64,000 nucleotides of DNA, taken from Phenylobacterium sp. (GTDB lineage: Bacteria > Pseudomonadota > Alphaproteobacteria > Caulobacterales > Caulobacteraceae). Position 1 is the stretch's first letter; every line of letters starts with the position of its first letter. The notes under the pieces are model-generated. The model was given only the letters and a program-made list of their open reading frames with translations. It did no database searches and was not told the DNA's origin. Where the stretch lies: positions 20,125 to 84,124 of the forward strand of contig NZ_DATMNA010000094.1 of assembly GCF_035569475.1 (NCBI RefSeq), in the 5' to 3' direction. Shown here piece by piece: positions 7,626 through 45,326 of this stretch. The position numbers were made by a program, and so were the translations under genes.

Positions 7626-7671
7626 ATGTTCACCTTTTGTTCTTGACGAGCGCGCGCATTTATGCGAGAAT
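7626..7671 (+). promoter_or_regulatory. LexA (SOS) box abutting a sigma70-type promoter
   Basis: GTTC-ACCTTTT-GTTC at 7628-7642 (alphaproteobacterial GTTC-N7-GTTC), then TTGACG, 15 nt, GCGAGAAT. Confidence 0.75.
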
Positions 7672-7802
7672 AAACCTATCGCTGTGAGATGCGCCTATTC
7701 CCCCACGGGGACTGAGCCGTCTCCGCGCTTTTCCTCCAATCCCGATGCTCGCCTCCGTTCTTTTGGAACGGCGCGCGCCTCGCTGTGCCTGAAGGACAGC
7801 CG

Positions 7803-8957
7803 ATGCCCTACTCCTTGGACCCTTCCGATCTGGAGGGTGACGAACTCGACCGTTGGTATCGACGGTCACCTCAGGAAATCGCACTGCAACAGCAAGCCAC
7901 TCAGGCGCAGCGCTATCGGGACTTCTTCGGGATTCCTGACGACACCGACGACAGCGATGGCGCCGAACGGGACGCTGCCGCGGATCAGGATATCAGCGAC
8001 CAATGGGGGGGGGCCCAGCCGCCCTCCCTTCAATCCCCTTCTTCGAATGGACTAGGAGCCGTTGACGGCTCCTCGATCAATCCGGTCGGCGCCGAAGATT
8101 TCCCACATCCTATCCCACTTTCTGAGCCACCGTTTGCGATCGGTGTTTCCTGGCCACCGCCCGTCCCGATGCCCATGCCCTGGACGCCCGGTTCGGAAGG
8201 TCGGCAGCCCGTCCCCTTAAATCAAATCGACCCCGCATCGTCGCAATTTGATCCCACGGCGACGACGGGTTCGGGCCAAACTCCAGTTCCTTCGCTCACA
8301 CACCCCAACCCGACCAAGCCGACGTTCATAGGCGCTTCTGCACCTGCAACCGGAGCTTCATCGACCGGCTCAGCACAGCCGGATCCATCGAAGGTTGATG
8401 TCTTTCAGCCCGACCCTGACGGGAAGCTGCAGCCGATCCCTGGCTGGCACACCACCGGACCATTCGACTTCGGTACATGGTCGCACAACGTCAACTGGGG
8501 CGGCGTCGCGAACGATCTTGCCAATATCGGCATGGGGGTGGCCGATTTTACGGGGGCTGGTGAGCTCGGTAGCGCGATCTTGGCTGGCCTCCGCTACAAG
8601 ATTGGGCCGGCAGTTGTCCGAGGCATCGTCCACGGTCATCACCCCTTGCCGAGGTTCATGGGTGGAGCCGCCGACCAGCAGTTGGCGCGCTTGCACCAAA
8701 GCATTCACCAGATGTTCCATGCAGACCTGGGCGCCGCGCTGAGAGAGGCCGGCTTTCCCCGCGTTGGTGGAAGAGGCGGTGGCACGGAGGATTGGACCGC
8801 CTTTTTCAAGGAGAACCCGGATGCGGAAAATCGAGCCATCGAGACTCTGCAGAGAGTGACGCGAGACTTTGATAAGAAGAATGGCACCAAAATTTCGAAA
8901 TATCTGGACGGGGAGTTGTCGCGACATAAACCTCCTCAGCCTCCTCCCCAGCAGTAG
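7803..8957 (+). CDS. Putative polymorphic toxin with C-terminal His-rich (HNH/EndoVII-like) nuclease domain
   Basis: ATG 7803 after GAAGGA; short helical N-terminus, long Pro/Ser-rich linker, hydrophobic Gly-rich segment, then HGHHPLPRFMGG...LHQSIHQMFH. Confidence 0.65.
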   Translation: MPYSLDPSDLEGDELDRWYRRSPQEIALQQQATQAQRYRDFFGIPDDTDDSDGAERDAAADQDISDQWGGAQPPSLQSPSSNGLGAVDGSSINPVGAEDFPHPIPLSEPPFAIGVSWPPPVPMPMPWTPGSEGRQPVPLNQIDPASSQFDPTATTGSGQTPVPSLTHPNPTKPTFIGASAPATGASSTGSAQPDPSKVDVFQPDPDGKLQPIPGWHTTGPFDFGTWSHNVNWGGVANDLANIGMGVADFTGAGELGSAILAGLRYKIGPAVVRGIVHGHHPLPRFMGGAADQQLARLHQSIHQMFHADLGAALREAGFPRVGGRGGGTEDWTAFFKENPDAENRAIETLQRVTRDFDKKNGTKISKYLDGELSRHKPPQPPPQQ

Positions 8958-8968
8958 CGACGGTCGAA

Positions 8969-9577
8969 TTGGGCATCTCGGATCGGCATGAAGATCGCTG
9001 GCTCTGGTTCACCCCGGAAACGGCTGATTGCGTTCGGCTGGATCCACGCGCTTATCCGTCAACAACATTTGGCCGACACATCATCCCCTTGCCCGAATGG
9101 GTTTGCCGAGCTCCGAACGGCGGCCTCCATGTCCGCGGAGGGCTTGGGCGGATCGACATCGACGTATCTGAGCCTCCGAATGCCACGGACGAGATCAATT
9201 GGACGTGCGACTATGGCCTCCGGATTCTCGCGAACAGTTGGCTCGACCAGGTTCGCGACTTGATAGACGGAGAACGGATCGGACTGGGCGTCCTCCGACG
9301 ATACGGAGACGTCCTTGATGGATGGTCCACCGTCCGGGAACGTCACCCACCACCGCTTCTTTCAACGGAGGGTTATACAAAAGCCTGTCCGAACTGCGGA
9401 CATTCCTATTCGGTCCTGCATGGCCGAGAATTCTTCGCCGACCCCACCGTCGTCGGCAGATCGCTGATCGTGAACAACAGCGGCGTGTTTGTGCGAGAGG
9501 ATATTGCCGACAGTCGGAACCTTTGCTCGCCTCGCGGCAGCTTCGAACCCGGTCTCGTCGCATTTGAAGCCTCCTAA
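8969..9577 (+). CDS. Putative immunity protein (CxxCG motif)
   Basis: Immediately downstream of the toxin-like gene; CPNCG motif; start uncertain. Confidence 0.55.
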   Translation: MGISDRHEDRWLWFTPETADCVRLDPRAYPSTTFGRHIIPLPEWVCRAPNGGLHVRGGLGRIDIDVSEPPNATDEINWTCDYGLRILANSWLDQVRDLIDGERIGLGVLRRYGDVLDGWSTVRERHPPPLLSTEGYTKACPNCGHSYSVLHGREFFADPTVVGRSLIVNNSGVFVREDIADSRNLCSPRGSFEPGLVAFEAS

Positions 9578-9630
9578 AGTCGCAGCTTCATGAGCAGCAC
9601 CGGAGCTTCCCCTAGGCAGCCTGTCGTCAC

Positions 9631-9655
9631 AAAACCTAGATCAGGTCTAGGTTTT
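9631..9655. promoter_or_regulatory. Inverted repeat, probable TA operator
   Basis: AAAACCTAGA-TCAGG-TCTAGGTTTT, perfect 10-bp arms, 15 nt upstream of the DUF4160 ATG. Confidence 0.65.
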
Positions 9656-9670
9656 ATGAGATAGTGCGCC

Positions 9671-9919
9671 ATGGCGACGGTGTTCCAGAGCCGGCGGCGC
9701 TATCGCGTGGCGGTCAATTCCAACGATCATCCACCACCGCACGTCCACGCGTTCGGCAAAGGTTGCGAGGCTCGATTCAAGCTCAACTGCCCAGAGGGGC
9801 CAGTGGAGCTCTGGGATTATGTCGGTGACTGGACCTTGGCGCGGCTGAACGAACTGGGCGGCGAGATCGCCGACAACCTTGCCGACTGCTGCAAGACTTG
9901 GGATGAGATCCATGGCTGA
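9671..9919 (+). CDS. DUF4160 domain protein (putative toxin)
   Basis: NDHPPPHVHA motif, 82 aa, C-terminal W..IHG. Confidence 0.85.
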   Translation: MATVFQSRRRYRVAVNSNDHPPPHVHAFGKGCEARFKLNCPEGPVELWDYVGDWTLARLNELGGEIADNLADCCKTWDEIHG

Positions 9920-10322
9920 GTTCAAGCTGGTCGATGAGACGGCCTTCAAAGCTGCCGGCGTCCGTGGCCGGTTCACTCACGCGACGCCTCGTGCGGTTAA
10001 AGCGCGATTTGATCGCCGCACAGCGCGGGTCGTGGTGGGATTGAGCACGGGGATCGAATTTGCGTTCGACCCTCGCCTCGCCCCCGGGCTGGCGGCAGCC
10101 GCCGCCGAGGATCTCGTCGGCGTCACGGTCGAGGGTGTTGGCAGCACGCTGCACTTCCCGCGATTGGACGCGGATTTCACCGTGTCGCGTCTGCTTGAAG
10201 GTTTTCTCGGCCCAATGGACTGGACCCGGCGCGAAGCCCGTGCCCTCGCCTCTCGGGAAAATGGCAAGCGCGGCGGCCGTCCAAAGCGAAGCGCGGGCTT
10301 GGCCAAGAACTCGCCCAGCTGA
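9912..10322 (+). CDS. DUF2442 domain protein (putative antitoxin)
   Basis: ATG overlaps DUF4160 stop; GSTLHFPRLDADF and ASRENGKRGGRP motifs. Confidence 0.85.
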   Translation: MAEFKLVDETAFKAAGVRGRFTHATPRAVKARFDRRTARVVVGLSTGIEFAFDPRLAPGLAAAAAEDLVGVTVEGVGSTLHFPRLDADFTVSRLLEGFLGPMDWTRREARALASRENGKRGGRPKRSAGLAKNSPS

Positions 10323-10812
10323 CGCAGCTTTTATGAGGGCGGCCGGCGCGTCATCAAAGAAGTAGCGCTCCGCCAACGCGCCGAGACGCGCGAAGCGATC
10401 ATTCTGCCCGGCTAAGAATGCGAAATTGCCTGATACCCCCGTAGAGGGAACGCTCGCACAGCGCCAGCCGCCGCCCGCCTAACCCATTGAAAATGCTGGA
10501 TCAGTGGATTTCGGACTCAACCCATACGCACGGACGGGTTGTCCGGTTGTCTCGCAAAGCCAATCCGCCTCTCCACGGCGGCATATTGTTCATCAACAAT
10601 ACAGTTACTTAGTACTCCTCCAGCTCCATTTCCCGTGGCGGGACCGGCAACTCTAGGTCGGTTTGGGGCCAAGCTGTTTTCCAATCCGAGATTACTCTCA
10701 TCCAATTGAAAATCATCAACTTTCTTCGATTTTATGGCTTCGAGGATTAGAAGCAAAAAGGCGCCCCGCGGCGCCCCGAAAATTTCGTAAGTCTTTGATT
10801 TTCTGCGGGGCG

Positions 10813-10858
10813 TGGTGCCTGGGGGCGGATTCGAACCACCGACACGCGGATTTTCAAT
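10813..10858 (-). repeat. att-like copy of tRNA-Phe 3' half (middle)
   Basis: 46 bp identical to 17583-17628. Confidence 0.95.
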
Positions 10859-11034
10859 TTATCGGAAATCGTTGATATTATTCTGAAATTCGGAAAAAAT
10901 GGATTCTCGCTGGCATATGAAAGCTGCCCGCCCTGGCATACACCGGCACGTATGCCGCGAAGATTGGCATTCATAATCAATGGTTTGACAGGATTCCGGA
11001 CTCCATGACGACGAAACGCTCGAATTCAGGTTCG

Positions 11035-11376
11035 TCAGGCCTTGTGAAAGGCGCGAAGTACCCGCGTTAAGAGCCTCGCCCCCTCCTCTGTTCGGTCCCA
11101 GGCAGCTAGGACCTCCGCAGCGAGCTTGGCCTCGACGCTCGTCGTCTTTGCGGCCGGCACTACCAAGCCTTCCGCTTCGGGCTCGATCCCGAGCGCGTTG
11201 CAAATCTTCAAGACGCTTGGGTTCAGCGTCGTGAAGTCGCCCCTGCAAATTCGCCAGGCCTGAGCACCGTCGACCTCCGCCAGCGTCCCAAGCTGCTCGA
11301 ACGTCAAGTCACGCTCTTGGCGACGCGCGCTGATCCGTTCGGCGAGTTGCGCCCCGTATTTGTAGCGCTTTGCCAT
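11035..11376 (-). CDS. XRE-family HTH regulator, divergent from the methyltransferase
   Basis: RRQERDLTFEQLGTLAEVDGAQAWRICRG HTH pattern. Confidence 0.8.
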   Translation of the reverse strand: MAKRYKYGAQLAERISARRQERDLTFEQLGTLAEVDGAQAWRICRGDFTTLNPSVLKICNALGIEPEAEGLVVPAAKTTSVEAKLAAEVLAAWDRTEEGARLLTRVLRAFHKA

Positions 11377-11416
11377 TGCTAATTAGCATATGCATTGCTA
11401 GATTATTTGCAATAAT
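11377..11416. promoter_or_regulatory. AT-rich divergent promoter region with palindromes
   Basis: TGCTAATTAGCA (11377-11388, perfect) and ATTATT-TGC-AATAAT (11402-11416). Confidence 0.55.
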
Positions 11417-11431
11417 ATTTGGGAGCGCCGC

Positions 11432-12694
11432 GTGTACGTTGGTTTCGAACAGTGGACAGGGAACCGCGAGGTCGCGACGCTCGGGACTAACGCTGGCTCC
11501 GCAGCAATCCCCTTCCAGCGCTGGCGTCACTTCAAAGAGGCCTTCGCGCCTGAAATCGTCTATGAGGCCGTTCGCGCGGCAGAGACCCCGGTGAAGACCT
11601 GCATCGATCCCTTTGGGGGTTCAGGGACGACCGCTCTCGCCTGCCAGTTCCTTGGGGTCGAGCCGACGACCATCGAGGTCAACCCATATCTCGCGGACCT
11701 CATTGAGGCCAAGCTGTCCACCTATGATCCTGATCGACTCGTCCAGGACCTAGGGACCATCCTGCGGAACGCGGAGCGTATTGATCCCGCCGCCACTCTC
11801 GCCGGCCTCCCGGCGACCCTTGTCGAACCCGGCGTGGCAAACCGCTGGATTTTTGATCTGAACGTCGCGCGTCGAATTCTTTGCATTCGCGCGGCAGTCG
11901 AGCAGCTAGGCACTCCGGCACATCGCCGCTTGTTCAAGGTTCTGCTCGGTGGCGTCCTAGTGGGTCTGAGCAACGCCGTTGTGAATGGCAAAGGGCGTCG
12001 CTACCGCCGAGGCTGGGACAAACGGACTCTTGGCGCAGGCGATGTCGATGCGGCATTTACCGACGCGGCATCCGCAGCGATCGGCGAAATCGGGCGCTAC
12101 GGGAGTCGCGCCGCTGGGGCCTATGCCGTCATTCGCGGCGACAGCCGCGAGGCGATCAAGGACCTAGGAGCGTTTGACCTAGCGGTCTTTTCGCCACCCT
12201 ATCCGAACTCGTTCGACTACACGGACGTCTACAACATCGAGCTTTGGATGTTGGGCTACCTCACCGGATCGGCAGAAAACCGATCTCTTCGAGAAAGCAC
12301 CCTCGCCTCGCACGTCCAGATTCATCGTTCCTTTGCGGCACCGCCGCCAGGCTCACAGCACCTCGCGGACACCCTCGGAATGCTTGAGGCCCAGAAAGAG
12401 CAGCTATGGAATCCGCACATCCCCGCGATGGTCGGCGCCTACTTCACCGAGATGCTGGGGATCGTGGAAGCCCTCGGCAAAGTGCTGCGACCCAGAGGGA
12501 CAATTTGGGCGGTTGTTGGCGATAGCCGCTATGCCGGCGTCGCTGTGAACGTGGCGAACATCCTCGGCGAACTTGCGACAGCGAACGGCCTGAAAGTGGA
12601 CAGGTTGGAGACACTTCGCGAGATGCGCGCTTCAGCACAGCAAGGTGGCCAAGCACAGCTTGCCGAGAGCCTAATAGTCATCCGCCACGCTTAA
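11432..12694 (+). CDS. Amino DNA methyltransferase, probably N4-cytosine (alpha motif order)
   Basis: Motif I DPFGGSGTT precedes motif IV FSPPY; VVGDS near C-terminus. Confidence 0.85.
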   Translation: MYVGFEQWTGNREVATLGTNAGSAAIPFQRWRHFKEAFAPEIVYEAVRAAETPVKTCIDPFGGSGTTALACQFLGVEPTTIEVNPYLADLIEAKLSTYDPDRLVQDLGTILRNAERIDPAATLAGLPATLVEPGVANRWIFDLNVARRILCIRAAVEQLGTPAHRRLFKVLLGGVLVGLSNAVVNGKGRRYRRGWDKRTLGAGDVDAAFTDAASAAIGEIGRYGSRAAGAYAVIRGDSREAIKDLGAFDLAVFSPPYPNSFDYTDVYNIELWMLGYLTGSAENRSLRESTLASHVQIHRSFAAPPPGSQHLADTLGMLEAQKEQLWNPHIPAMVGAYFTEMLGIVEALGKVLRPRGTIWAVVGDSRYAGVAVNVANILGELATANGLKVDRLETLREMRASAQQGGQAQLAESLIVIRHA

Positions 12695-13758
12695 GGCCCG
12701 TACCGGGCTACCCGATATCGCTCTGCGTCGTTGAATAGATAGTTGCGGTGGAGCTCGACGGAGAGGCCGTCAGCGTACGCTTTCACCGCTGCGAAGGCGG
12801 CGGTGTCGCCAACGTCAGTGGCGCGCATGTCGAAGCAACAGAGCATCCCCGCCCTCGCCCGCCGCTCGTCTCTGTATGCGGCGGCCTGCCTTGCGCCGCG
12901 TCTCATCCACTTCTCGTTCTTGGTAGCGGACCAATGATGCCCGCGGATATTTCGCTCTCGAAGAACCTTGATCTCAATTTCGGCGGGAATGATCGAAGAG
13001 CCATCCGCCATCCGCTGGACAACTTCCAAATCCACGCGGCCGACTTTCATCGGCTGCTCATGCCGGACATCGCAGCTAAATAGAGCGACCGAAAGCGCCG
13101 TCTTTACGTGTGCCTGCGCGATGGCTTCGGCGTTCTGAGCCGCGCGGTGTTTGTCCGCGTCATGCCACATGGAAACGCCAGCAACTTGAGCGTCGGGGGT
13201 GCAAAGATTGGACTCGTGCGCCGCATCGATGACGCGCTTGATGTCATCGAGCGTCGTTTCCCGGTCGACGATATCGACGGTTTCAACGCTCTCCTCATCG
13301 TTCAATCCGTGGCGGTAAAGCCGGACCGTGGGCGTCGTGACGGTCGGATTGAACACTGCCGCCGGAACATCGCCAAGTCCGAGCCCCTGGATGTAGTCAA
13401 AGACCTCCCCAGCGCCTTCGGATGGCGGAACCAGCTCACGCCCCGATTGGACGTTCATCGGGACGAACCAAATTCGCCCAGAAATCTCAACGCCGCCATC
13501 GCCCAACATTGGCTGGCGCGTCGTGTCTGTTCCGGACAGCCCGCCGGGCTGGAGCAGAAAGACGGCGATTGCATCGCGCCGCATATCGCCGAGATGCTGC
13601 CTTGTTCGTCGAAGGGCTAGGCGCGCGACGTTGCGGCCAAAGCGCGACACGGGAGGAAGATCGTCATCGGCGCCGTCGCCGGCAAACAGTCGCGCTGTCC
13701 CGCCGAGATCGGCCCCCGTCCAGAATCCTAAACCTGTCGCATTGTTGTCAGCGGGCAC
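12691..13758 (-). CDS. Putative PD-(D/E)XK nuclease-domain effector
   Basis: GTG 13758 after GGAGG, overlapping the upstream stop; C-terminal HEQ...GRVDL...EIEIK...QAAAY. Confidence 0.6.
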   Translation of the reverse strand: MPADNNATGLGFWTGADLGGTARLFAGDGADDDLPPVSRFGRNVARLALRRTRQHLGDMRRDAIAVFLLQPGGLSGTDTTRQPMLGDGGVEISGRIWFVPMNVQSGRELVPPSEGAGEVFDYIQGLGLGDVPAAVFNPTVTTPTVRLYRHGLNDEESVETVDIVDRETTLDDIKRVIDAAHESNLCTPDAQVAGVSMWHDADKHRAAQNAEAIAQAHVKTALSVALFSCDVRHEQPMKVGRVDLEVVQRMADGSSIIPAEIEIKVLRERNIRGHHWSATKNEKWMRRGARQAAAYRDERRARAGMLCCFDMRATDVGDTAAFAAVKAYADGLSVELHRNYLFNDAERYRVARYGP

Positions 13759-14419
13759 CCTGGAGCCGCCTCCGCAGGTGTCGGACGTAGAGGTGGACTT
13801 TCTCGCTGGCGCCGACGACCGCACCGGTCTCCACTAGGCTGCCAACCTTTTCCGCCGAGGCAGCGGAATAGTTCACGTCCAGCCATTCCCCGAAGTCGAT
13901 CACATTGTCGGCGCTGAAGTGAGGGTCGGCGTATGTCGCATCTTCGTTGATCACACGATCGATCTCCGCATCGGACAGCGCCGACAATGCAAGGACGAGT
14001 TCGCGCAGGAAGTGAGCCGACGCAGCTTCGTCGGGCATCGTTTCGAGGTGGCCGAGGATAGGGTCGGCGAGATCAGGATTCAGCCGATAACTGCCTTCCA
14101 AGCGATAATGCTCGGCGTCGATCTCAACGTGCTTCAGCCCTTCAACCCTTGCCACGCCCAGGCCGACGAGGCGATCGAGGTCGCGCTGGAGGTCTGGATA
14201 GAATGGACCACCGCTCCGCTTCAGCACCGTCCCGTCCACACTTGGCATGTCCCAGACGGGCGAAAGAACATTAGCCAGGTAGGCGATGAGGTGCAGACGA
14301 AGCGCCGGCAATGGATCGATGCCGGCGTCTAGGCTCGCCTTGAGCAAGACGACGAGCCGTACACGCCGACGTATGGACGCGGCGAACTGATCCTCTTGCG
14401 GGCGCGAACTCTCGCTCAT
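13748..14419 (-). CDS. Putative winged-helix 'middle component' protein
   Basis: RLHLIAYLA...GGPFYPDLQRDLDRL pattern; ATGA-coupled to the ATPase. Confidence 0.55.
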   Translation of the reverse strand: MSESSRPQEDQFAASIRRRVRLVVLLKASLDAGIDPLPALRLHLIAYLANVLSPVWDMPSVDGTVLKRSGGPFYPDLQRDLDRLVGLGVARVEGLKHVEIDAEHYRLEGSYRLNPDLADPILGHLETMPDEAASAHFLRELVLALSALSDAEIDRVINEDATYADPHFSADNVIDFGEWLDVNYSAASAEKVGSLVETGAVVGASEKVHLYVRHLRRRLQGAR

Positions 14420-16401
14420 GCCAGCGGCTCAAATAGCCGCTCTCTGAGCCGATCATATTCGTCGCGATCGTCGCTGACGGCGCGCGTGGGCTTCGCAACC
14501 TCGAAGAGATCGACCAGCCGGTCGGCCTTCTCCGGTGTAGCTGCCAAACCCCCGACAAGGGTCGGAAGTAGGCTACCCTCGATCAGGTTTGAAGTGACGA
14601 GCAGACGGTTTTCCCCCTCGCCTGCGAAGCGAAGCAAGACGTTGCCTGCGCGCTTAGCAAAGACAGCGTCGAGCGACGATTCTGGCGTGTCGATGATCAG
14701 AGCCGCCGAGCCGTCGCTTGACGATCGCATGAGCGCCATTCGAAACGCGAGATCGATGAACTCACGCTGACTTTCGGACACGTCTCCAGGGCCGGCACGA
14801 CGTACCGCATCTGAAAAATCGCTGCCGGTCATGTTGAGTTCGAAGGCGGGAAACGGAATTGCTTCGCCGCTTTGCCCAACTGCCGCTGACCGCATGGCCC
14901 ACGTCAGCGAGACGCGTTCAGAAAGGAACGCGCCCGCAAAAAGCTCAAAGCCCTCGACGATCTGGCTGGCGGAAGCCAACAACTCGTCCGTGCATTGCTC
15001 GACGAATTCCCGAAACGCGGTGCGCTCTGCCGCCAATTCCGTTTTCATTGACTCAAGCCGACCTCGAATGGCGGCTAGTTCACCGCGCTGGGTTCGGAGG
15101 ACCGCTTCGTCTGGTGGCAGCAACTCGATGATGCGGGAAAGCCGTGCTGATCGACTCGCGATCTCGGCGTTCAAACGCGTTACTTCCAGCGTATGCGCGT
15201 CGAATTCCGCCTCGGCGATTTCACGTTCGCGTACTGCGCCGGCTAGTTCCCGGTCCGCGAGTTCGAGCAGACGTTCCGATTTCACTACGCGCTCATCTGC
15301 GACGTCGCGCGCCTCAACAATTTCGGCTGATCGCGACAGGTCGCTATCGCACACGACGCACTTGTCGCCCGTCAGGCGGGCGGCGTAGGCGGCTGCGGCT
15401 TCTGGAGCATGGGAGCCGCAGACTAGGCAATCCATCTCGCTCATGAGATGGGCGACCATGTACCGGCCCGTTTCGAGACGTCCTGGGAAACGAGCTTCGA
15501 TCGCAACAAGCTTGGCGTGTTCCAATGCTCTGAAGCGCGCCTCTCGCTCCTGTTTCGCCTTCAGATGGCTCAGACGCGCCTCCTGGCGCCTGCTGTCCAT
15601 CGCGTCCGTAAAGGGCTCGATCTCCTCCAGCCGAGCCCGTCCTTGTTCTTGTAGGGCGTCAAGCGCTTGAAGCTCGCCGCGCACCGCAGCGGCATTGCTG
15701 GCTTTCGCCAAGCTGTTGTTCAGCAACTTCTCCTCGCGCCCAACGACCGCTTGGAAGTTGCGCATCCGGCTGTCGTTCTGAAGGATGGATCGTTCCAACT
15801 CCGTCCATCGTTGGGCAATATCGGCGGGCAGAAAAAGCATCCGCAGAAGCTGCCGCTGAGCAGAAGGATCCCAAACCAGCTGCCGCCGGTCTTCGAAGTA
15901 AAACACCAAGTATCGCAGCATCAGGATAAAATCGCCGAAAGAACCGAGGCCCGATGCGGCTGCTATTTCGGCTTGAAGAATGGACTCGTCCGTAATTTCA
16001 GACGCACCGAACAGCGCTGAAATCAGTCCAAGATCGCTCAACCGACGCTCAACGACCACGACTATCGAACCAAGCATAAATTCCAGACGAGCCGTCGCGG
16101 TTGCCGCTCGATCTCCGACGCGCGCGGCTAGGATCGAACGCTGCGGCGAGGGAATTGCCGCAGCGGCCAGACGGCGAAAACCTAGCTCGTCGCCGACGCC
16201 GAGTGCAGGAATGTCGTATGGACCGGCCAGGAGCCGGAAGATCAGCGTGATGAGCGTCGTTTTGCCTAGCCCATTTGCACCAACGACTAGGGTGAGGCCG
16301 GGCGGGAAGTCCACATGCAGCCCAGGCGTAGCGTCGGACACGCCTGGAAAGAGGCCATACCCGTCGACGTCCAGGCGGCAGAAGACGGGGAATGTCTTCA
16401 A
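14416..16401 (-). CDS. Rad50/SMC-like ABC ATPase with coiled coil and CxxC motifs
   Basis: Walker A GANGLGKTT, coiled coils, CLVC and CVVC, degenerate signature VSESQ, Walker B LIIDTPE with SLD loop. Confidence 0.85.
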   Translation of the reverse strand: MKTFPVFCRLDVDGYGLFPGVSDATPGLHVDFPPGLTLVVGANGLGKTTLITLIFRLLAGPYDIPALGVGDELGFRRLAAAAIPSPQRSILAARVGDRAATATARLEFMLGSIVVVVERRLSDLGLISALFGASEITDESILQAEIAAASGLGSFGDFILMLRYLVFYFEDRRQLVWDPSAQRQLLRMLFLPADIAQRWTELERSILQNDSRMRNFQAVVGREEKLLNNSLAKASNAAAVRGELQALDALQEQGRARLEEIEPFTDAMDSRRQEARLSHLKAKQEREARFRALEHAKLVAIEARFPGRLETGRYMVAHLMSEMDCLVCGSHAPEAAAAYAARLTGDKCVVCDSDLSRSAEIVEARDVADERVVKSERLLELADRELAGAVREREIAEAEFDAHTLEVTRLNAEIASRSARLSRIIELLPPDEAVLRTQRGELAAIRGRLESMKTELAAERTAFREFVEQCTDELLASASQIVEGFELFAGAFLSERVSLTWAMRSAAVGQSGEAIPFPAFELNMTGSDFSDAVRRAGPGDVSESQREFIDLAFRMALMRSSSDGSAALIIDTPESSLDAVFAKRAGNVLLRFAGEGENRLLVTSNLIEGSLLPTLVGGLAATPEKADRLVDLFEVAKPTRAVSDDRDEYDRLRERLFEPLA

Positions 16402-16639
16402 GCAGCAAAATCCTCTCTCACGCCCACCCTAGGCATGCATTGCGATAACCTACACCGTAGGCTTGTGGAAGGTGCCCATCGCCCTAACGGGCGTCGATCA
16501 TGTCGATGCGGCGTCATAGCACTCAACGCCGACCGTCGCGCGATCGCAACGCCCTCTACGAGTCTGCCGTCTCCGGCGATGAGAACGCCGGCCCATTTGG
16601 CTGTCCGCTCTTCATGCGTCACCAGCGCATCAAAACAGT

Positions 16640-16867
16640 TCACCCACCGTCATCAGGGTCCGTGGGTTGAAGCAACGCCAGCGGATCGACGCCCAGCACG
16701 CTTGCAAGCCGCTCGACGACATCTAGTGTCGGATTTCGAATTCCGCGCTCGATCTGACCAACGTATGTGACAGCGAGGCCCACCTCGTCTGCGAGCACTT
16801 CCTGGCTAAGTCCGCGCTCCTGCCGGGCGAGACGGACATTTATCCCCAAGACCTGATTCAAGCCCAT
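16640..16867 (-). CDS. XRE-family HTH, resembling R-M controller (C) proteins
   Basis: 75 aa; RQERGLSQEVLA...TYVGQIERGIRNPTL. Confidence 0.85.
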   Translation of the reverse strand: MGLNQVLGINVRLARQERGLSQEVLADEVGLAVTYVGQIERGIRNPTLDVVERLASVLGVDPLALLQPTDPDDGG

Positions 16868-16901
16868 CAGGGCAGGCGTATTGAGTCCCGACCCCCCGAC
16901 C

Positions 16902-16931
16902 AGTCACTATAGTGACTATACGAGTCGACTC
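16902..16931. promoter_or_regulatory. C-box-like operator
   Basis: Perfect 16-bp palindrome AGTCACTATAGTGACT (16902-16917) plus GAGTCGACTC (16922-16931); GACT/AGTC half-sites upstream of the XRE gene. Confidence 0.6.
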
Positions 16932-17245: not shown

Positions 17246-17261
17246 AGTCCAGCTTGGCCTT

Positions 17262-36318: not shown

Positions 36319-36372
36319 AGGCCGGCATCTGGGCGCGGCCGCCCGCCTCGGTCAAGCTCGCCGGGCCTGACT

Positions 36373-38154
36373 CTAGGCCGCCGTGACCGCTCCGCCCTCG
36401 CCGGCCTCCTGGCCTCCCGGAGCCCGGGCCAGCTCCAGGGCCGCATAGAGGTTCGCCGCCTCGATCGGCTTGGCCACGTGGCCGTCCATGCCGGCCTCGC
36501 GGTAGTCGGCGATCTGGTGCGCCATGGCGTTGGCGGTCAGGGCCACGATCGGGGTGTAGGCGCGTGCCGTCCGGGCCTCCGCCGCACGGATCGCCCGCGT
36601 CGCGGCGGGGCCGTCCATCACCGGCATCTGCACGTCCATCAGGATCAGGTCCCAGGGCTCCCGGGTCCAGGCCTCCAGGGCCGCGCGCCCATCGGCCACT
36701 ACCGTCGGCTCGACGCCCGCCTGCGCCAGCAGGGTCCGGAGCACGAGCTGGTTGATGGCGTTGTCCTCTGCCGCCAGCACCCGCAGCGGGCGCTCGGGCG
36801 AAGCGGGCCCGTCCGGCGCCGGCGTCGCGGGGTTCGGCGCTGTCGCCCCTGCCCCTTCCGCCGCCGTGGCCCGCGGGAGCGGCAGGCTCGCCGTGAAGGT
36901 CGAGCCGCGCCCGGGCGTGCTGGCGGCCTCGATCGACCCGCCCATCAGCCCGGCCAGCTCGCGGCAGATCGACAGCCCCAGCCCCGCGCCGCCATAGCGC
37001 CGGGTGGTCGAGGCGTCGGCCTGCTCGAACTTGCCGAACAGGCGCGACAGCGCCTCGTCGTCGATGCCCACGCCGCTGTCGGCGACCGCGATCCGCACCG
37101 CGTCGCCGTCTCGGCTCACGGTCACCACGATCCGCCCGGCCTCGGTGAATTTCAGGGCGTTGGAAATCAGGTTGTGCAGGATCTGGCGCACCCGCGTCGG
37201 GTCGCCCAGGCAGCGGCCGCCCGCGCCCGCGGCGAGCTCCAGCTCCAGGGCCAGGCCCTTGGCGTCGGCCAGCGGCGCGAAGGTGTCCCGCGCCCCGGTC
37301 GCCAGCGCCGTCAGGTCGAATTCGATGGTCTCCAGCTCCAGCTTGCCCGCCTCCACCCGGCTCAGGTCCAGGATGTCGTTCAGGATCGCCAGCAGGCCCT
37401 CGCCGGACTCCCGGATCACCTGCACCTGGGCGCGCACGTCGCCGGGGAGGGACGGCTGGGCGGTGATCGCCTGGGCCATGCCCAGCACCCCGTTCAGCGG
37501 CGTGCGGATCTCATGGCTCATGGTGGCCAGGAAGGCGCTCTTGGCGCGGGTGGCGGACTCCGCCTCGTCCATGGCCTGGACGATGGCCGCATTGGCCCGC
37601 GTCAGCCGCTTGGCCTCCATGAAGTTGACGCCCATGCTCACCGTGGCGTGCCCCACCGCCGCCAGCATGGTGACCTCGACCAGAACCTGGTCGACCCCAT
37701 GGAAGTGCTGGACCAACAGGGGCGCCAGCGCCGGCGCCGCCAGCGCCGGCAGGGCCGGGATCAGCGCGCCGATCGAGCGCCCGTGGTGGGTGTCCAGGTA
37801 GAGCAGGTGCCCCGCGAAGAAGGCCATGCCCGCCAGTTGGCAGGCCACGTGGCTGGAGGACCACAGGATCGCCCCCGCCGCGCTCCAGGCGGCGATCGCC
37901 GCGGCGTAGACCGCCACGCAGATCCACGCCTCCGCCCGGCTCAGCTTCAGGCCCCGGGCCATGGGCCGGGTCACCTCCCGCAGCGGCCATTCGACGGCGA
38001 CCGCGGCCACCACCCAGAACCCGGCCTTCTGCCAGCTCTCGCCCAGGCCCATGACCGCCCAGACCACGCCGGCCATCAGCAGGCGCATGGCCGAGAAGTG
38101 GAAACTTCTCGCCCCGGCCTCGCTGAAGCGCTCGTCGAACCAGCCCTGAAGCAT
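36373..38154 (-). CDS. Hybrid sensor histidine kinase/response regulator
   Basis: FLATMSHEIRTPLNG, NLISNALKFT, receiver LMDVQMPVMDG. Confidence 0.92.
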   Translation of the reverse strand: MLQGWFDERFSEAGARSFHFSAMRLLMAGVVWAVMGLGESWQKAGFWVVAAVAVEWPLREVTRPMARGLKLSRAEAWICVAVYAAAIAAWSAAGAILWSSSHVACQLAGMAFFAGHLLYLDTHHGRSIGALIPALPALAAPALAPLLVQHFHGVDQVLVEVTMLAAVGHATVSMGVNFMEAKRLTRANAAIVQAMDEAESATRAKSAFLATMSHEIRTPLNGVLGMAQAITAQPSLPGDVRAQVQVIRESGEGLLAILNDILDLSRVEAGKLELETIEFDLTALATGARDTFAPLADAKGLALELELAAGAGGRCLGDPTRVRQILHNLISNALKFTEAGRIVVTVSRDGDAVRIAVADSGVGIDDEALSRLFGKFEQADASTTRRYGGAGLGLSICRELAGLMGGSIEAASTPGRGSTFTASLPLPRATAAEGAGATAPNPATPAPDGPASPERPLRVLAAEDNAINQLVLRTLLAQAGVEPTVVADGRAALEAWTREPWDLILMDVQMPVMDGPAATRAIRAAEARTARAYTPIVALTANAMAHQIADYREAGMDGHVAKPIEAANLYAALELARAPGGQEAGEGGAVTAA

Positions 38155-38227
38155 CCCGCCCCCGAAACCCGGGCGCGGAGCATGGCCGAGGTTCCACAAG
38201 GCGCGGTTAATGCCAGGCGCGATCGCC

Positions 38228-39610
38228 TCACCCCATCCAGCCCAGCGGCGCGCCCACGCTCGCCCGGCCCGGCCGCCGGACCGCGGCCCCGCCGCTGCGG
38301 TTGGCCGCGAACTCGCCGAAGGCGTCGGCCCCGTGGCTCGACTCGTCGTGCAGCGGCCCGCCATAGCTGCGCGTGGCCCGGTTCCACCGCTTGCGGTAGC
38401 CGCGCAGCCGCTCCAGCCCGCCGGCGCACTTCTCCGCGTCGAACCAGGTCATCGGGATCATCAGCCGCCCGGCGTTGATCCGCTCCTCCGGGTCCATCGC
38501 CGCCCCCACCGAGATCGGCGACAGCCCCAGCCCGCCCAGGGTCTCGAACCGCGAACGCCCCGCCGCCCCCAGCTCGCGCACCATCACGTCGTGCGGCAGG
38601 TGGTGCGTCCCATAGGTGTAGGGCTTGCCGGCCAGCCCGGCCTGCACGATTCCCGCCAGCCCCTCGCCGGAGGCCTCGAAATAGTCGATGGCGCGCACCT
38701 CGCGGCCGGCCTGCTGGAAGAACCAGATGGCCGTATAGTCGTCGATGCCCAGGTCCCAGGCGGTGTCCACGCGCAGCGCCGGATCGAACGGCACGCGCCC
38801 GATCCGCCCTTCCCGCTCGGCGTCCCGCAACAGCGGCGCGTAGTAGGCGCCCGGCGCCGCGGCGTCGAAATCCACCAGATATTCCGACGCGTACCGCGCC
38901 TCGCCCTCCTCCACCGATCCCAGCTCGGCGATCATCTCCGCCCGCTCCCGCTCCAGTTGCTCGGGCGTGAACACGTCGGTCAGCGTCGCCGGCGACCTGA
39001 GCGTGAACCACTCGTCCTTCCGCAGCCGGCGGCTCTCGAACGCCCGCGTCGCATGCCCCCGCCCGCGCGGCGTCCACAGGAACAGCGCCCAGCCCCCGTT
39101 TTCCGCCAGGATCGGCCGGATGAAGCTCCACGCCTCCGGCTTGGCCAACGACCACTCGGAAAACACCACGCCCACCGGCGATGACCCCACCAGGCTGTTG
39201 TAGTTGTCCGATCCCGCCACCTGCCATGTGGAGCCGTTCGCCAGTTCCAGCTTCATCTCGCCGTTGAAGCGCCGCGCCCGCACCTCGCGCGGAAACGCCT
39301 CGTCGATCCGCCGCTTGCCGGTATGCGGGTTCACCGCGTCCCAGATCGCCTTGCGCCCCTGCGACGCCTCGGGAAGCAGGTGCCAGTAGCTGCCGACCCG
39401 CTGCGACGCCGACAGCGCCGCCCAGCGCAGCGCGACATCGTCCTTCCCCCACCGGCGATGGGCCACCACGTCGGCGCGCGTGCAGCCGTCCAGCAGCGCC
39501 TCCCACAGCTCGACCTGATGCGGTCGCGGCATCCAGTCGACCGGCATGCGCAGGCGCGGGACCGCCTCGTCCTCCGTGGGCGCGGGCGCTGCCTTGCGCC
39601 GACCGCTCAT
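38228..39610 (-). CDS. terL: Phage terminase large subunit
   Basis: Walker A HRRWGKD, Walker B GVVFSE, nuclease TAWDLG and SHGADAF. Confidence 0.9.
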   Translation of the reverse strand: MSGRRKAAPAPTEDEAVPRLRMPVDWMPRPHQVELWEALLDGCTRADVVAHRRWGKDDVALRWAALSASQRVGSYWHLLPEASQGRKAIWDAVNPHTGKRRIDEAFPREVRARRFNGEMKLELANGSTWQVAGSDNYNSLVGSSPVGVVFSEWSLAKPEAWSFIRPILAENGGWALFLWTPRGRGHATRAFESRRLRKDEWFTLRSPATLTDVFTPEQLERERAEMIAELGSVEEGEARYASEYLVDFDAAAPGAYYAPLLRDAEREGRIGRVPFDPALRVDTAWDLGIDDYTAIWFFQQAGREVRAIDYFEASGEGLAGIVQAGLAGKPYTYGTHHLPHDVMVRELGAAGRSRFETLGGLGLSPISVGAAMDPEERINAGRLMIPMTWFDAEKCAGGLERLRGYRKRWNRATRSYGGPLHDESSHGADAFGEFAANRSGGAAVRRPGRASVGAPLGWMG

Positions 39611-40140
39611 TGCGGCGTCCGCCGCGAGCGCGACGCCGCCGGGCGGACTTCCCGCACATAGACGCTCCCGTCCGGCCGCGTGACCTTCTCGAACCGCCGC
39701 ACCTCGATGATCAGGCGCTGGGTCTGGGTGTCCTCGGCGTCGTCATGGACATCGCTGCGCGTCCCGTAGCGGCGAGGCGCAGCCTTCGCCGCCCGCCACT
39801 GCAAGGCTCCCACATGCAGCCGGTCCGCCTGCACCGTCGCCGCCGTCGCCGCCTCGGCCACCGCCAGCGCCTTGTCGGCCCGCAGGTCCGCGGCCATCTC
39901 GCGCGCCTGGGCCAGCGCCTCGGCGAACTCCGGATGCTTGCGCTGCCATGCGTAGAGCGTCGTGTAGCTCGGCATCCGCCCGGTGTTGGCGATCCGGAAC
40001 CAGGCCTCGCCGTTGGCGATCCGCTCGCAGATCTCCCGGGTGATCTTCTGCGAATACCGCACGCAGACCACCGTCCCGTCGACGCGCACAGTCTTGCCCG
40101 CGGGCCCGTTGCCCCGCGAGTTCGATGTCCTCTTGGGCAT
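39607..40140 (-). CDS. terS: Phage terminase small subunit
   Basis: ICERIANGE...MPSYTTLYAW...PEF...WRAAKAAPRRYG; ATGA-coupled to terL; GAGG RBS. Confidence 0.85.
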   Translation of the reverse strand: MPKRTSNSRGNGPAGKTVRVDGTVVCVRYSQKITREICERIANGEAWFRIANTGRMPSYTTLYAWQRKHPEFAEALAQAREMAADLRADKALAVAEAATAATVQADRLHVGALQWRAAKAAPRRYGTRSDVHDDAEDTQTQRLIIEVRRFEKVTRPDGSVYVREVRPAASRSRRTPQ

Positions 40141-41519: not shown

Positions 41520-43037
41520 ATGACCCTTCGCACGACCCTCGCCGCCGCGGCGGTTCTCGCCCTGGCCGGCCTCGCCGCGCCCGCCTTCGCCGCCGACACC
41601 GTGAAGGTGGCGCAAGGGACGCTCCACGGCGCCACGGCCGGCCCGGTGGCCAGCTTCAAGAACATCCCCTTCGCCGCCCCGCCGGTGGGCGACCTGCGCT
41701 GGCGGCCGCCGCAATCTCCCGCGTCCTGGACCGGCGTTCGCGACGCCACGGCCTACGGCCCCATGTGCATGCAGATGCGCCAGGTCACCCCCGACGTGAA
41801 GCAGTCGGAGGACTGCCTCACCCTCAACGTCTGGACGCCCGCCGGCTTCAAGCCGGGCGGCAAGCTGCCGGTGATGGTGTTCATCCACGGCGGCTCCTTC
41901 ACCGGCGGCTCGGGCTCCAACGCCATCTATGACGGGACCCACTTCGCCGAGCGCGGCGTGGTGCTGGTGACGGTCAACTACCGCCTGGGACGCCTGGGCT
42001 TCTTCGCCCATCCGGCGCTGACCGCCGAGCAGCCCGGCGCCCCGCTCGCCAACTACGGCATGATGGACAACATCGCGGCCCTGAAGTGGGTGCAGGCCAA
42101 TATCGCCGCCTTCGGGGGCGATCCGAAAAACGTCACGGCCTTCGGCGAGAGCGCCGGCGGCATCCTGATCAACGACCTGATGGCCTCGCCCCAGGCCAGG
42201 GGCCTGTTCGCCAAGGCGATCTCGGAGTCCGGCTTCGGCCGCGTGCCGGGCCTGCCCATGGCCGCCGCCGAGAAGGCGGGCGTGGCCTACGCCACCGGCC
42301 TTGGCGTCGCCGGAACCGGCCCCGACGCCGTGAAGGCCCTGCGCGCGCTTCCCGCCGACCAGCTTTCCAAGGCCACCGGCCAGATCACCCCGATCGTCGA
42401 CGGCAAGGTGATGCCCGAGGGCCCCGCCGCGGCCTTCGCCGCCGGCCGCGAGCTGAAGGTCCCCTAAATCGCCGGCGGCAACAGTTGGGAGGCGAGCCTC
42501 TTCCCCAACAACACCCCGCTCGACAACGCCGGCCCGCTCCGCGACAAGCTCGTCGCCGTCTACGGCAGCCCGGCGGACCTCAAGAACGTCCAGTGGGACC
42601 TGGCCACCGAGGCCATGGTTATCGAGCCCGATCGCCTGCTCGCCCGCCTGCACGTCAGGAACGGCCAGAAGGCCTGGGTCTACTACGACAGCTACATCCC
42701 GGCGTCGCAGCGTCCGACGACCCACGGCCTCGCCCACGGCGGGGAGCTGATGTACGTCTTCGGCACCCTCCCCGACCACGACCGCGTCCAGGGAACCCGC
42801 ACCATCCCGGCGGCCACCCCGGACGACCGCAAGTCCGGCGCCGCCATGACCGACGCCTGGGTCGCCTTCGCCAAGGCCGGCGATCCCAGCACGCCCGCCG
42901 CCGCCTGGCCGGCCTACACGCCCGCCAACGACACCGTGCTCGAGTTCGGCGCCGACGGCGTCCACGCCCGCGCCGCCTTCCACAAGCCTTCCCTCGACCT
43001 GGTGGAACAGCTCGCCGCCGCGAACGCGGGGCGTTGA
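41520..43037 (+). pseudogene. Type-B carboxylesterase interrupted by one in-frame TAA
   Basis: SEDCLTLNVW, FGESAGG, HGGEL; KVP*IAGGN at 42465-42467, frame continues to 43037. Confidence 0.85.
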
Positions 43038-43306: not shown

Positions 43307-43331
43307 CCTTGTCTGAAATCAGGTTCACGCC

Positions 43332-43604
43332 TTAGCGCGGAACCCAGACGCCGTGCTCGTAGTAGCCACGGCCCTCGTGATAGTCGCGCCAGTGGTGCTC
43401 GCGATCGCTGTCCCAATGCTGGTGGAAATACCAGTCGTCGGGATGGGACCGCAGCACGACGTGCGGATAGACGACGCGGTTGTCGACGTGCCAGCAGTCG
43501 CCCTCGGCGTTGCATACGATCCGCGCCGAGGCGGCGCCGGCGGTCGCCAGCGCGCCGATGCCGATGACAGCGGCGATCGCCGCGACGGGTAATTTGGTCT
43601 TCAT
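43332..43604 (-). CDS. Small secreted protein (paralog 1)
   Basis: Signal peptide ending ASA; RIVCNAEGDCWH...HPDDWY...GRGYY..GVWVPR. Confidence 0.8.
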   Translation of the reverse strand: MKTKLPVAAIAAVIGIGALATAGAASARIVCNAEGDCWHVDNRVVYPHVVLRSHPDDWYFHQHWDSDREHHWRDYHEGRGYYEHGVWVPR

Positions 43605-43762
43605 AGGGTCTCTCTCCAATCTCGCCGCCGCGCCCTCGGTCGCGGTGTGGCTGGCGGGAAAAACGCCGAACGCCCGACCGGGGTTGCGCGGCCCGCCCCA
43701 TCGCCCAAGCAAAAAGGGCGGCCCGAAGACCGCCCTTTCGCTACATTTTCAGCTCGGTTGGG

Positions 43763-44041
43763 CTAGCGCGGAACCCAGACGCCGTGGGCGTAGTAGCCGC
43801 GGCCTTCATGCGTGTCCCGCCAATGGCGCTGGTTGCTCTGGTCCCACTTCTGGTGGAAGTACCAGTCGTCCGGGTGGGACTGCACCACAACGTGCCGGCC
43901 ATAGGTGGCTCGGCTGTCGGTGTGCCAGCAGTCGCCGTCGGCGTTGCAGACCACGCGGGCCGAGGCGGTTCCAGCGCTGACGGCCACGCCGCCAAGGCCC
44001 AGGACAGCGGCGATCGCCACTGCGGACAGGGTGATTTTCAC
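43763..44041 (-). CDS. Small secreted protein (paralog 2)
   Basis: GTG start after GGAG; RVVCNADGDCWH...HPDDWY...GRGYY..GVWVPR. Confidence 0.8.
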   Translation of the reverse strand: MKITLSAVAIAAVLGLGGVAVSAGTASARVVCNADGDCWHTDSRATYGRHVVVQSHPDDWYFHQKWDQSNQRHWRDTHEGRGYYAHGVWVPR

Positions 44042-44161
44042 GTTCGGTACATCTCCCAATTTCGCCGTGGCGCGAAAGCGCGACGGAGCCGCCAACCAAC
44101 GCCGGGCCCCCGTCGAGGTTGCGCGGACTGCGCCGTTTCCGGTCCGATCGATCCCTGGCCG

Positions 44162-44830
44162 CTAGTTACGCTGCCACGGCGGAACCTCGTCGCGGGCGCT
44201 GCGGATGCTGTCGCGGAGCCGCGAAAGGCGTCCTTCCAGATAGAACCGGTCGGAGTCGCGAAGCCGTCCGCCGGCGTGTCGCATCATCCGCCCCTGGGTG
44301 GCGCGGATGTCGTTCAGCGCGGCCTGGGCCCGGAAGGCTTCGTGCCGGCTCAGCGTTCCGTCGCCGCGCCCGCGGTCGATGCGTTCCTGGATCCAGGATT
44401 CGCGCCGCTCCAGGGTCCAGTCGCCGGCGACGGGGGGCGGCGCGACGACCGGCGGCGCGGCCACCGGCGGGGCGCCCGGCCCCGGCCCGTGCTCGCGCAT
44501 CCAGTGGATCGAGCGGCTGAGGCCGTCGAGCCGTTCCTGCAGGCGGCCGCGGTCCATCTCGCTGAGCTCGCCGCCGGTGCGCGCCCGCATCCGATCCTGC
44601 TCCTCGCGGATCGAGGTCAGCTCGCGCATGGCGCGGTCCGCCTCGCCCCGGTCGATCTGGCCCGCGCGGATGCCGTCGTCGATGCGGTGCTGCAGGGTAT
44701 CGAGCTGTTCGCGAAGGTCGTGGCCGGGGCGCACGGCGCCGGCCGCCGGCGGGGCGTAGGGCTGGGCGAGCGTCGGCGCGGCGCCGCAAAGGGCCGTAGC
44801 GCACAGGGCGATCGCCAGTAACGACTTCAT
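44162..44830 (-). CDS. Secreted protein with two internal helical repeats
   Basis: Signal peptide; RIDDGIRAGQI..E / RIDRGRGDGTL..E repeats. Confidence 0.75.
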   Translation of the reverse strand: MKSLLAIALCATALCGAAPTLAQPYAPPAAGAVRPGHDLREQLDTLQHRIDDGIRAGQIDRGEADRAMRELTSIREEQDRMRARTGGELSEMDRGRLQERLDGLSRSIHWMREHGPGPGAPPVAAPPVVAPPPVAGDWTLERRESWIQERIDRGRGDGTLSRHEAFRAQAALNDIRATQGRMMRHAGGRLRDSDRFYLEGRLSRLRDSIRSARDEVPPWQRN

Positions 44831-45280
44831 CTTGTTTCTCTCCTGGGAAGGGCCCCGCCCCAATATTGCAGGATCGAAACGTTGCCCCGCCCACAAGGTT
44901 GCGGGCCACGGCCGGCCGACCTTTTTAGTTCGAGGTGTCGATCCGCACCCGCCGGGGATGCCGCGTCGGCGGCAGCCGCCCCTTCACCGAACGCTGCGCC
45001 GTGCGCCAGGCCGGCGGCAGGCCCAACCCCAGGCGGCGCGCGGCGCGCGCATCTGCACCCCGCCGGCGCAACGGCCGCAGCAGGGCGGAAAGGGTCGAAG
45101 CAAAAGACATCATCGCAAAGCCGGGTCCATAAAAGCGAGCCGCGCCGCGCGGCCGGTTCGCCGGCGGCCGCGCTTCATCCCTCGCCCCGCCCGGTGCATG
45201 AAGTGGCGCCGACGCGCACCGCGGCGCACGGTTAAGCCGGCGCCGGCCGATGGGCCGGCGCAGCCATCGACGCTGACGCA

Positions 45281-45326
45281 AACCTAGCGAAATCGCGCGC
45301 GAAAGTCAAGAACAAACGAGGAACAT
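45281..45326 (-). promoter_or_regulatory. LexA (SOS) box abutting a complete sigma70-type promoter, facing the late genes
   Basis: GTTC-CTCGTTT-GTTC (45324-45310), TTGACT, 15 nt, GCTAGGTT. Confidence 0.78.

Follow-up and report, generated by a model that had tools for sequence, protein, structure and literature searches.

LexA-boxed copies of a late-promoter-like motif before toxin genes and an apparently domesticated P22-like prophage in Phenylobacterium

A predicted toxin gene residing in a tRNA islet and a prophage-derived element are found 18 kb apart in a 64,000-nt stretch of Phenylobacterium sp. DNA (assembly GCF_035569475.1, contig NZ_DATMNA010000094.1, positions 20,125 to 84,124; the window hereafter). 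Both the toxin gene and the late genes of the element are preceded by the same motif, a LexA-type box (GTTC-N7-GTTC) set against a -35 hexamer and followed by a CGCGCGC spacer. The initial annotation of this DNA had supposed that a local DUF6456-like protein acts at the spacer, so that toxin, terminase, tail and lysis genes form one regulon induced by DNA damage, the toxin being released by lysis or loaded into a phage-derived particle. The question raised by the locus is therefore what unites toxins and phage. The answer favoured here, tentatively and as something close to an even call, is that the motif represents the late promoter belonging to a P22-like prophage which has become domesticated, the promoter being likely repressed by LexA and likely read through by a Q-type antiterminator, and that the associated toxin-immunity cassettes would be induced by DNA damage and, in strains which keep the head genes, are likely loaded into the head as antibacterial cargo.

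The promoter motif and its copies

The sequence TTGTTCTTGAC-N3-CGCGCGC has three exact matches in the window, at 7637-7657 (plus strand), 34484-34504 and 45295-45315 (both minus strand), with LexA boxes starting at 7628, 34513 and 45324, respectively, the box at 34513 carrying one mismatch. Shuffled versions of the window yield 0.12 matches with three or fewer mismatches, and 0/100 shuffles reach 4. The three sequences aligned in the initial annotation are all present where it had placed them, and the sites at 7628 and 45324 do have the same spacing, 17 nt separating the -35 from a -10 of the form NANNNT in both. The core GTTCTTGAC-N3-CGCGCGC occurs three times in the 4.04-Mb assembly searched genome-wide (88% complete), never outside the window; exact GTTC-N7-GTTC boxes number 90. 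Identification of this box as a LexA site is in line with the Caulobacter consensus as given in PMC4211646, and with the presence of the same box at C38:104915, just upstream of the lexA gene of the strain itself (C38:104968). Scored as GTTC-N7-GTTC at 7/8 bases and overlapping a promoter, LexA boxes are found at the motif sites.

Copies aligned from other genomes describe a promoter of about 70 bp, made up by LexA box, TTGAC, a 17-nt spacer containing the palindrome CGCGCGCG (commonest form ATTCGCGCGCGAAT), a -10, a second hexamer here called the pause element, and a closing TGCGCC tail. Sixty copies from relatives were picked by box, -35, spacer and tail position, neither hexamer being used for the picking: the -10 is of the form NANNNT in 58, and a second NANNNT lies 5 nt past it in 56, vs. 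3 of 33 host LexA boxes. According to bioRxiv 10.1101/2024.11.20.624540, a NANNNT 5 bp behind the -10 is required for antitermination by BrrG in the gene transfer agent (GTA) BaGTA; according to PMC11150451, GafZ binds and needs a GC palindrome between -35 and -10. Because hexamers and palindrome match these requirements, the motif probably works like a late promoter of the lambda pR' type, to which a LexA operator has been added. In line with a Q-type promoter, as implied in the initial annotation, the pause element is found at 45324 as in the copies from relatives; at 7628 it has lost the conserved T, the spacer being retained, and at 34513 it is deleted. Terminator-like sites lie downstream of two of the promoters (7706-7725 and 45154-45138), but such sites are found in a minority of promoter leaders, and their count in the 26-45.8 kb interval equals that of shuffled sequences.

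Matrices trained on other genomes were used to score 40 LexA-box candidates in the genome. The spacer scores at three of them, all window sites; the downstream element scores at 45324, at 7628 and also at C46:43777, a fourth site, located before the gene of another protein that shares the N-terminal leader of the toxin encoded at 7803. In relatives, copies precede terminase, portal and toxin-immunity cassettes. Twenty further motif loci comprise 10 copies before paralogs of the small terminase subunit gene (terS), 6 deletion scars at the right end of the element, 1 insertion sequence (IS) insertion, 1 locus at a contig end and 2 lacking a LexA box; all of 11 distinct IMG/VR contigs annotated are the same phage element. 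The genome-wide scan thus assigns the motif to the phage element, and the possibility that the spacer is common at unrelated SOS promoters was rejected on the same counts. Most named records with the motif and the proteins beside it come from Phenylobacterium, and the 21-mer also matches genomes outside Caulobacteraceae in GTDB.

Further variation was observed around the promoter copies. Solo terS-like genes are scattered in the chromosome (C112:5875, minus; C56:13208, plus; C87:88784, minus; C95:33258, plus) and in relatives (L262-L268, L271, L274, L279; five in one relative), and all of them follow either a LexA box or a complete late-promoter copy; their products could confer packaging specificity or inhibit packaging by other phages. 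At L194, L199/L287 and L288-L289, a single cassette lies between two near-identical promoters, in the order promoter-cassette-promoter-portal, which suggests that cassettes may be gained and lost via recombination at the promoter. Inserted host genes repeatedly precede promoter copies, and histidine kinase genes (HWE, hybrid) reside directly upstream of copies in the window (34528-38364, 45446-46513) as in several relatives.

Toxin cassettes, leaders and the phage head

The link between toxins and virion genes supposed in the initial annotation is most evident in relatives, where toxin-immunity cassettes lie within the head module. Of the 23 elements examined, 20 have inserts larger than 500 nt between the portal, scaffold, capsid or adaptor genes, and in many of these inserts toxin-like genes are succeeded by small genes for membrane or signal-bearing products. 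Other cassettes are located between duplicated promoters ahead of the portal gene, three in tandem in one genome. Pfam matches were obtained for 10 of 34 cargo candidates (lysozyme, Ntox44, HNH, Tox-REase-5, Tox-REase-9, DUF6973, 3D, hydrolase), and a hydrophobic N-terminal signal in 0 of 60 cargo proteins. Elements also contain degenerate leaders of the 7803-toxin type, in one case in the gap from capsid to adaptor, and a cargo domain is joined in frame to one of the scaffolds.

The leader was detected in 25 of 301 genomes of the family, namely the present one, 22/45 genomes of the genus and 2/7 of one sister genus. A 1.84-billion library contains it in 319 clusters, where it lies at or near the N-terminus among the 150 matches listed; it was found neither in cultured phage records nor, by a 4-sequence alignment, in IMG/VR. 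The 113 longer leader proteins can be distinguished into 7 C-terminal families with at least three members and 21 singletons, many of which are probably frameshifted. HNH, Tox-REase-5 and Tox-REase-9 (Pfam) are among the leader-borne C-termini, the family as a whole combining a conserved N-terminus with interchangeable C-terminal domains, as polymorphic toxins do. The second leader-type protein of this genome (C46:43577-42915, minus strand; L035) features a Cys-rich C-terminus that belongs to no known family, and its partner gene is convergent; proteins with this C-terminus make up the largest leader group (51/113).

The predicted toxin encoded at 7803 has a His-motif domain of the HNH/AHH/SHH-like type, and is likely a nuclease. 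The top structural match is the polymorphic toxin PT1(Em) (PDB title; Z 5.5, root-mean-square deviation 4.0, 87 amino acids), and the clusters nearest to it by language model, with scores under the 0.9 bar, are AHH, HNH, DUF2380 and Tox-SHH. Profile scans gave no family match for the product of the partner gene at 8969-9577; across loci, the partner open reading frame (ORF) co-varies with the toxin type.

A LexA-type box is found 65-216 nt upstream in 23 of 30 leader-toxin loci. Among toxin promoters selected by protein, the exact spacer is found in 1/22 and the pause in 6/22, and toxin promoters outscore host SOS boxes on both phage elements (spacer and downstream element). They may thus descend from the late promoter, and have lost the Q elements since. 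As the LexA box is kept, and spacer and pause are mostly lost, LexA, not the DUF6456-like protein, is likely the common control, and co-induction of toxins and phage most likely occurs through LexA. The idea of a single regulon finds support in so far as toxin promoters appear to be of phage origin and usually retain the LexA box; the notion that spacer and DUF6456-like protein unite toxins with phage is not supported.

The leader also resembles the scaffold, a likeness which is suggestive only. The leader profile aligns to a conserved scaffold segment, residues 51-81, with E 0.0035; column shuffles scored as high in 1/200 and 2/150 cases, and scaffolds come out near the top when the profile is run against 3,694 host proteins. 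When hidden Markov models of scaffold segments were run against 60 cargo and 3,694 host proteins, cargo ranked high, with E of at least 0.75. The leader of another cargo resembles the C-terminal helix of the scaffold (ranks 2 and 3, E about 0.75). The predicted complex of leader and scaffold residues 38-225 has a score of 0.02, which is evidence neither way.

The element, its regulator and the head deletion

Features of the window are listed in Table 1. In relatives the genes are arranged in the order cysE-DUF3126-SRAP-cI-cro-65aa-Q-like-(inserted host genes)-promoter-terS-terL-(inserts)-(promoter)-portal-scaffold-major head-adaptor-tail genes-ejection-like-lysis-DUF2239-murA/hisD, flanking genes being the same throughout; replication or integrase genes were not seen inside these loci. 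The coat is P22-like, with at most 45% identity to any cultured phage. Among the 45 genomes of the genus, the Q-like gene is present in 34, and terL, the virion structural gene and portal are retained in 28, 24 and 20 (two weak), respectively. Distances correlate with those of rpoB (Mantel r 0.57 for Q-like in 27 genomes, 0.77 for portal in 13 genomes; p 0.0005), genomes lacking a rpoB match (3/30) being excluded from tree and Mantel input. The ratio of nonsynonymous to synonymous rates (dN/dS) is 0.09-0.24 for both portal and Q-like in the 8 closest pairs each. Since the element tracks the host phylogeny and is under purifying selection, it appears to be a domesticated P22-like prophage, residing at one chromosomal locus in soil bacteria of the Phenylobacterium type and often lost; vertical inheritance, a fixed locus and purifying selection are likewise the marks of a GTA. 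The gene calls of the initial annotation proved broadly right, terS, endolysin, Rz and virion structural protein being recognized by PHROGs or Pfam; the names of terL, holin and ejection protein are putative.

Table 1. Coordinates of promoter copies, genes and tRNA-related features in the window
Feature	Position	Strand	Remarks
tRNA-Phe 3'-end duplication (attachment scar)	7402-7462		Bounds toxin islet; second scar 10806-10866
Late-promoter copy before toxin	7628-7695	+	LexA box 7628-7642; -35 TTGACG 7643-7648; CGCGCGC spacer; -10 GAGAAT 7666-7671; degenerate pause TATCGC 7677-7682
Predicted polymorphic toxin, 384 aa	7803-8957	+	45-aa shared helical leader; Pro/Ser-rich low-complexity linker; His-motif C-terminal domain
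Predicted immunity gene	8969-9577	+	Start uncertain; 59% identical ORF after same toxin type in relative locus L051
Intact tRNA-Phe	17583-17658	-	
Lysis cassette	26161-27429	-	Predicted holin, peptidase M15 endolysin, Rz-like spanin, small o-spanin-like ORF
93-aa gene and predicted ejection/pilot protein	27699-28835	-	284 aa, Gly/Gln/Ala-rich; putative, by position and composition
Virion structural protein	28919-30451	-	Tail-stabilisation position; phrog_3287, E 1e-54
Two small tail/fibre-like genes	32863-33957	-	138 aa; Gly-rich 225 aa
5'-truncated tail gene	33971-34479	-	Starts at about codon 27 of relatives' protein (tblastn residues 27-189)
Truncated portal promoter	34480-34513	-	One-mismatch LexA box, -35, spacer; junction 34479/34480
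Predicted terminase large subunit (terL)	38228-39610	-	Position, Walker-like motifs, phrog_2472
Terminase small subunit (terS)	39607-40140	-	Sf6-like
Complete late promoter (pR'-like)	45255-45324	-	Upstream of terminase region; LexA box 45324-45310; TTGACT; palindromic spacer; -10 TAGGTT 45286-45281; pause CAGCGT 45275-45270; top-scoring site
Predicted Q-type antiterminator, DUF6456-like	46491-47087	-	Q position; C-terminal sigma-4-like helix-turn-helix in model
Conserved 65-aa gene and cro-position gene	47126-47601	-	Early operon, by synteny
cI-like repressor	47666-48310	+	Helix-turn-helix and S24 peptidase
SRAP gene	48338-48892	+	Conserved left flank, followed by DUF3126 and cysE

The name DUF6456-like given to the putative antiterminator comes from language-model neighbours. 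None of 36 members of the Q-like family matches Pfam DUF6456 at E up to 1; among the ESM atlas neighbours of the protein, 15 of 30 are DUF6456-bearing clusters (score 0.93, family share 23%). The model resembles sigma region 4 (Z 5-6). A PDB sequence search with the Q-like profile gave nothing significant, and Foldseek no match at E ≤0.001 for either this model or that of the 7803 toxin.

Portal, scaffold, capsid and adaptor genes were not found in this assembly, the corresponding block measuring 6.4-8.6 kb in seven relatives. The deletion cuts the promoter at 34513 just before the -10, and joins it to codon ~27 of a tail gene. Lacking a -10 as a consequence, the 34.5-kb site, which the initial annotation had aligned with the other two, is the former portal promoter and is likely silent. 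With the head module gone, this strain likely cannot build heads and makes no particle, and loading of its toxin into a phage-derived particle of its own, as had been envisaged, is accordingly unlikely. The junction is spanned, with no differences, by a contig of the probable source run, and it is bridged by one from another study; in a third study, a near-identical contig runs on, exactly from 34479, into a tail gene whose start is intact. An assembly artefact at 34479 was therefore rejected, independent contigs spanning the junction and the deletion being polymorphic between studies. At several loci (34479 in the window; L004, L272, L273, L276 and L278) the endpoint of a deletion falls on the -10, a few bases or less from the spacer, which may reflect selection for silencing together with search bias, or a site of cleavage or recombination.

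Other genes accompany the element. A family-4 glycosyltransferase and a predicted methyltransferase (30565-33001, plus strand) form a reversed insert in the tail region, with similar genes at the equivalent position in some relatives, and may modify the surface receptor of the producer. A carboxylesterase gene (42467-42615) seems to be divided into two ORFs at 42467, a position whose base differs in other runs. In the sister genus, a related element (L292-L293) carries replication-like genes in the interval from Q-like to terL, as well as a partner gene next to a cargo gene of the 3D-domain type; it is possibly a less-domesticated relative. The toxin islet has a GC content of ~0.60 (vs. 0.70), and also hosts a DUF4160/DUF2442 gene pair resembling a toxin-antitoxin (TA) module (9671-10322). 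A second tRNA-Phe islet (10866-17576) contains a helix-turn-helix gene, a type II-like DNA methyltransferase (11432-12694) and an operon whose SMC-like ATPase (14416-16401) matches Lamassu LmuB (E 3e-11); no integrase was seen in it.

The favoured reading and its alternatives

According to the favoured reading, DNA damage would lead to cleavage of LexA and of the cI-like repressor, and the Q-like protein, judging from promoter anatomy, would load at spacer palindrome and pause, enabling RNA polymerase to run through terminase, head, tail and lysis genes in spite of inserted host genes. Toxin-immunity pairs occupy the gaps between portal, scaffold, capsid and adaptor, sit behind duplicated promoters, or are dispersed with LexA-boxed copies. 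Short helical leaders resembling scaffold segments might recruit toxins into procapsids, and the particle might deliver them via ejection proteins, immunity genes protecting kin. In this strain, the most to be expected for the 7803 toxin is release by lysis, or retention for the sake of its immunity gene. A bolder form, in which a genus-wide domesticated podovirus acts as an SOS-triggered protein-delivery particle, and toxins encoded at any chromosomal site join it via a promoter copy and a scaffold-mimicking leader, to be expressed along with it, taken up by the procapsid and ejected into competitors, seems on the unlikely side. Loading into particles is suggested by genome comparisons, and several data besides the absence of head genes here weigh against it. 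Some head-gap inserts are not toxins (ISs, TA pairs, orphan immunity-like genes). Ten of 22 leader-toxin genomes have no portal match, 7 of the 10 also lacking the virion structural gene, and the leader/portal table (12/10/8/15) reveals no clear association. The leader-scaffold alignment has a hhalign probability of 2-9%, and single-sequence E of at least 0.2, nine target families having been tried; the fold match of the toxin is middling. Spacer conservation in the copy set is circular because the selecting pattern contained the spacer; among protein-selected loci, the spacer precedes 6/30 portals, upstream sequence being shorter than 300 nt at two loci, and is exact before 1/22 toxins. The internal portal promoter is a derived feature, terL abutting portal in other loci.

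Genomes carrying the toxin and no portal, like this strain with its toxin and lysis genes and no head, would be accounted for if the toxins were soluble, colicin-like bacteriocins induced by SOS and released by lysis, be it that of the element or any other, the leader serving for uptake or oligomerisation and the capsid being irrelevant. Dispersed cassettes, which keep the LexA box and mostly lose the Q elements, fit as well, and 9 of 30 leader-toxin loci lie within ~1.5 kb of a tRNA gene. Yet toxin-immunity pairs recur precisely between head genes, overlapping the scaffold stop, no receptor-binding or translocation domain was found in the cargo scanned, and several head-less genomes have also lost the region down to Rz. 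This explanation is rated improbable. A GTA packaging host DNA, with cassettes as passengers exploiting promoter and transduction, is rated a shade less probable still, and is compatible with the favoured reading. The lack of replication and integrase genes in the loci seen, the several dispersed terS paralogs (10 solo terS genes with promoter copies of their own), the mode of inheritance and selection, the retention of terminase and a Q-type control as in BaGTA and CcGTA all fit a GTA; left unexplained are the helical leaders shared by diverse toxin domains, and periplasm-acting lysozyme cargo with signal-bearing partner genes. Least probable, and quite remote, is a decaying prophage whose promoter copies are mere recombination substrates, and whose cassettes are selfish addiction modules acting in the own cell. 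Repeated independent losses, terL and capsid genes split in some genomes, single cassettes flanked by near-identical promoter pairs and the deletion polymorphism at 34479 are as expected of decay, but dN/dS values on portal and Q-like and conservation of the leader in 319 clusters are not, and lysozyme-type cargo lacking signal peptides would presumably miss its target in the producing cell.

The control of toxin, immunity and lysis genes by DNA damage follows the logic of SOS-induced colicins, pyocins and tailocins. Unlike these, intact elements retain head and terminase, with no long tail module seen, and the cargo lacks recognizable colicin translocation domains. RcGTA and CcGTA are of the HK97 siphoviral type. 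With CcGTA GafZ and its ZBE site (as described in PMC11150451), and with lambda and 21 Q, the element shares a GC-rich near-palindrome between -35 and -10 and a sigma-like helix-turn-helix regulator; it differs from CcGTA in the P22-like coat, the multiple promoter copies and the direct LexA box. BaGTA, as presented with BrrG in bioRxiv 10.1101/2024.11.20.624540, likewise derives from an alphaproteobacterial phage by domestication, and its promoter is Q-type, a NANNNT lying 5 bp past the -10, but the element has a LexA box on the late promoter and putative toxin cargo. NCBIfam BaGTA models match none of portal, capsid and adaptor, and one cargo protein weakly (BgtA lysozyme). The element would thus add a domesticated phage lineage apart from RcGTA/CcGTA and BaGTA, with LexA likely acting directly on a Q-type late promoter. 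No description of it was found in the literature searched, subscription journals and bioRxiv supplements lying outside coverage, and a domesticated podophage with associated polymorphic toxins is apparently undescribed.

The closest known kind are the MuF polymorphic toxins (MuF-SS), for which capsid delivery is a genomics-based hypothesis concerning mobile phages (Zhang et al. 2012, PMC3482391; Jamet et al. 2017, PMC5576092). In MuF phages, as in the element of relatives, a polymorphic toxin and an immunity gene reside in the head/packaging module, and head loading and delivery by virions are proposed. A Pfam MuF match was obtained neither for the window toxin nor for the 41 + 67 proteins scanned. 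As far as the MuF systems are described in these sources, the element differs from them in having a P22-like coat and portal, several short leaders in place of one MuF domain, dispersed cassettes bearing their own late-promoter copy, and a fixed, vertically inherited locus, the MuF toxins being found in temperate phages that are mobile and stem mainly from Firmicutes. Should the leader act as a loading tag, a stretch of ~45 residues could target proteins to the head of a podovirus. Were the bolder form of the reading true, toxin secretion would be based on a capsid, promoter and loading tags being its modules. The element offers a fixed, vertically inherited case among Caulobacteraceae that can be cultured; its promoter is defined, there is a candidate for the loading tag, and toxin types are many. 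Since natural head-less strains can serve as controls, the question of capsid delivery raised by the MuF toxins becomes directly testable.

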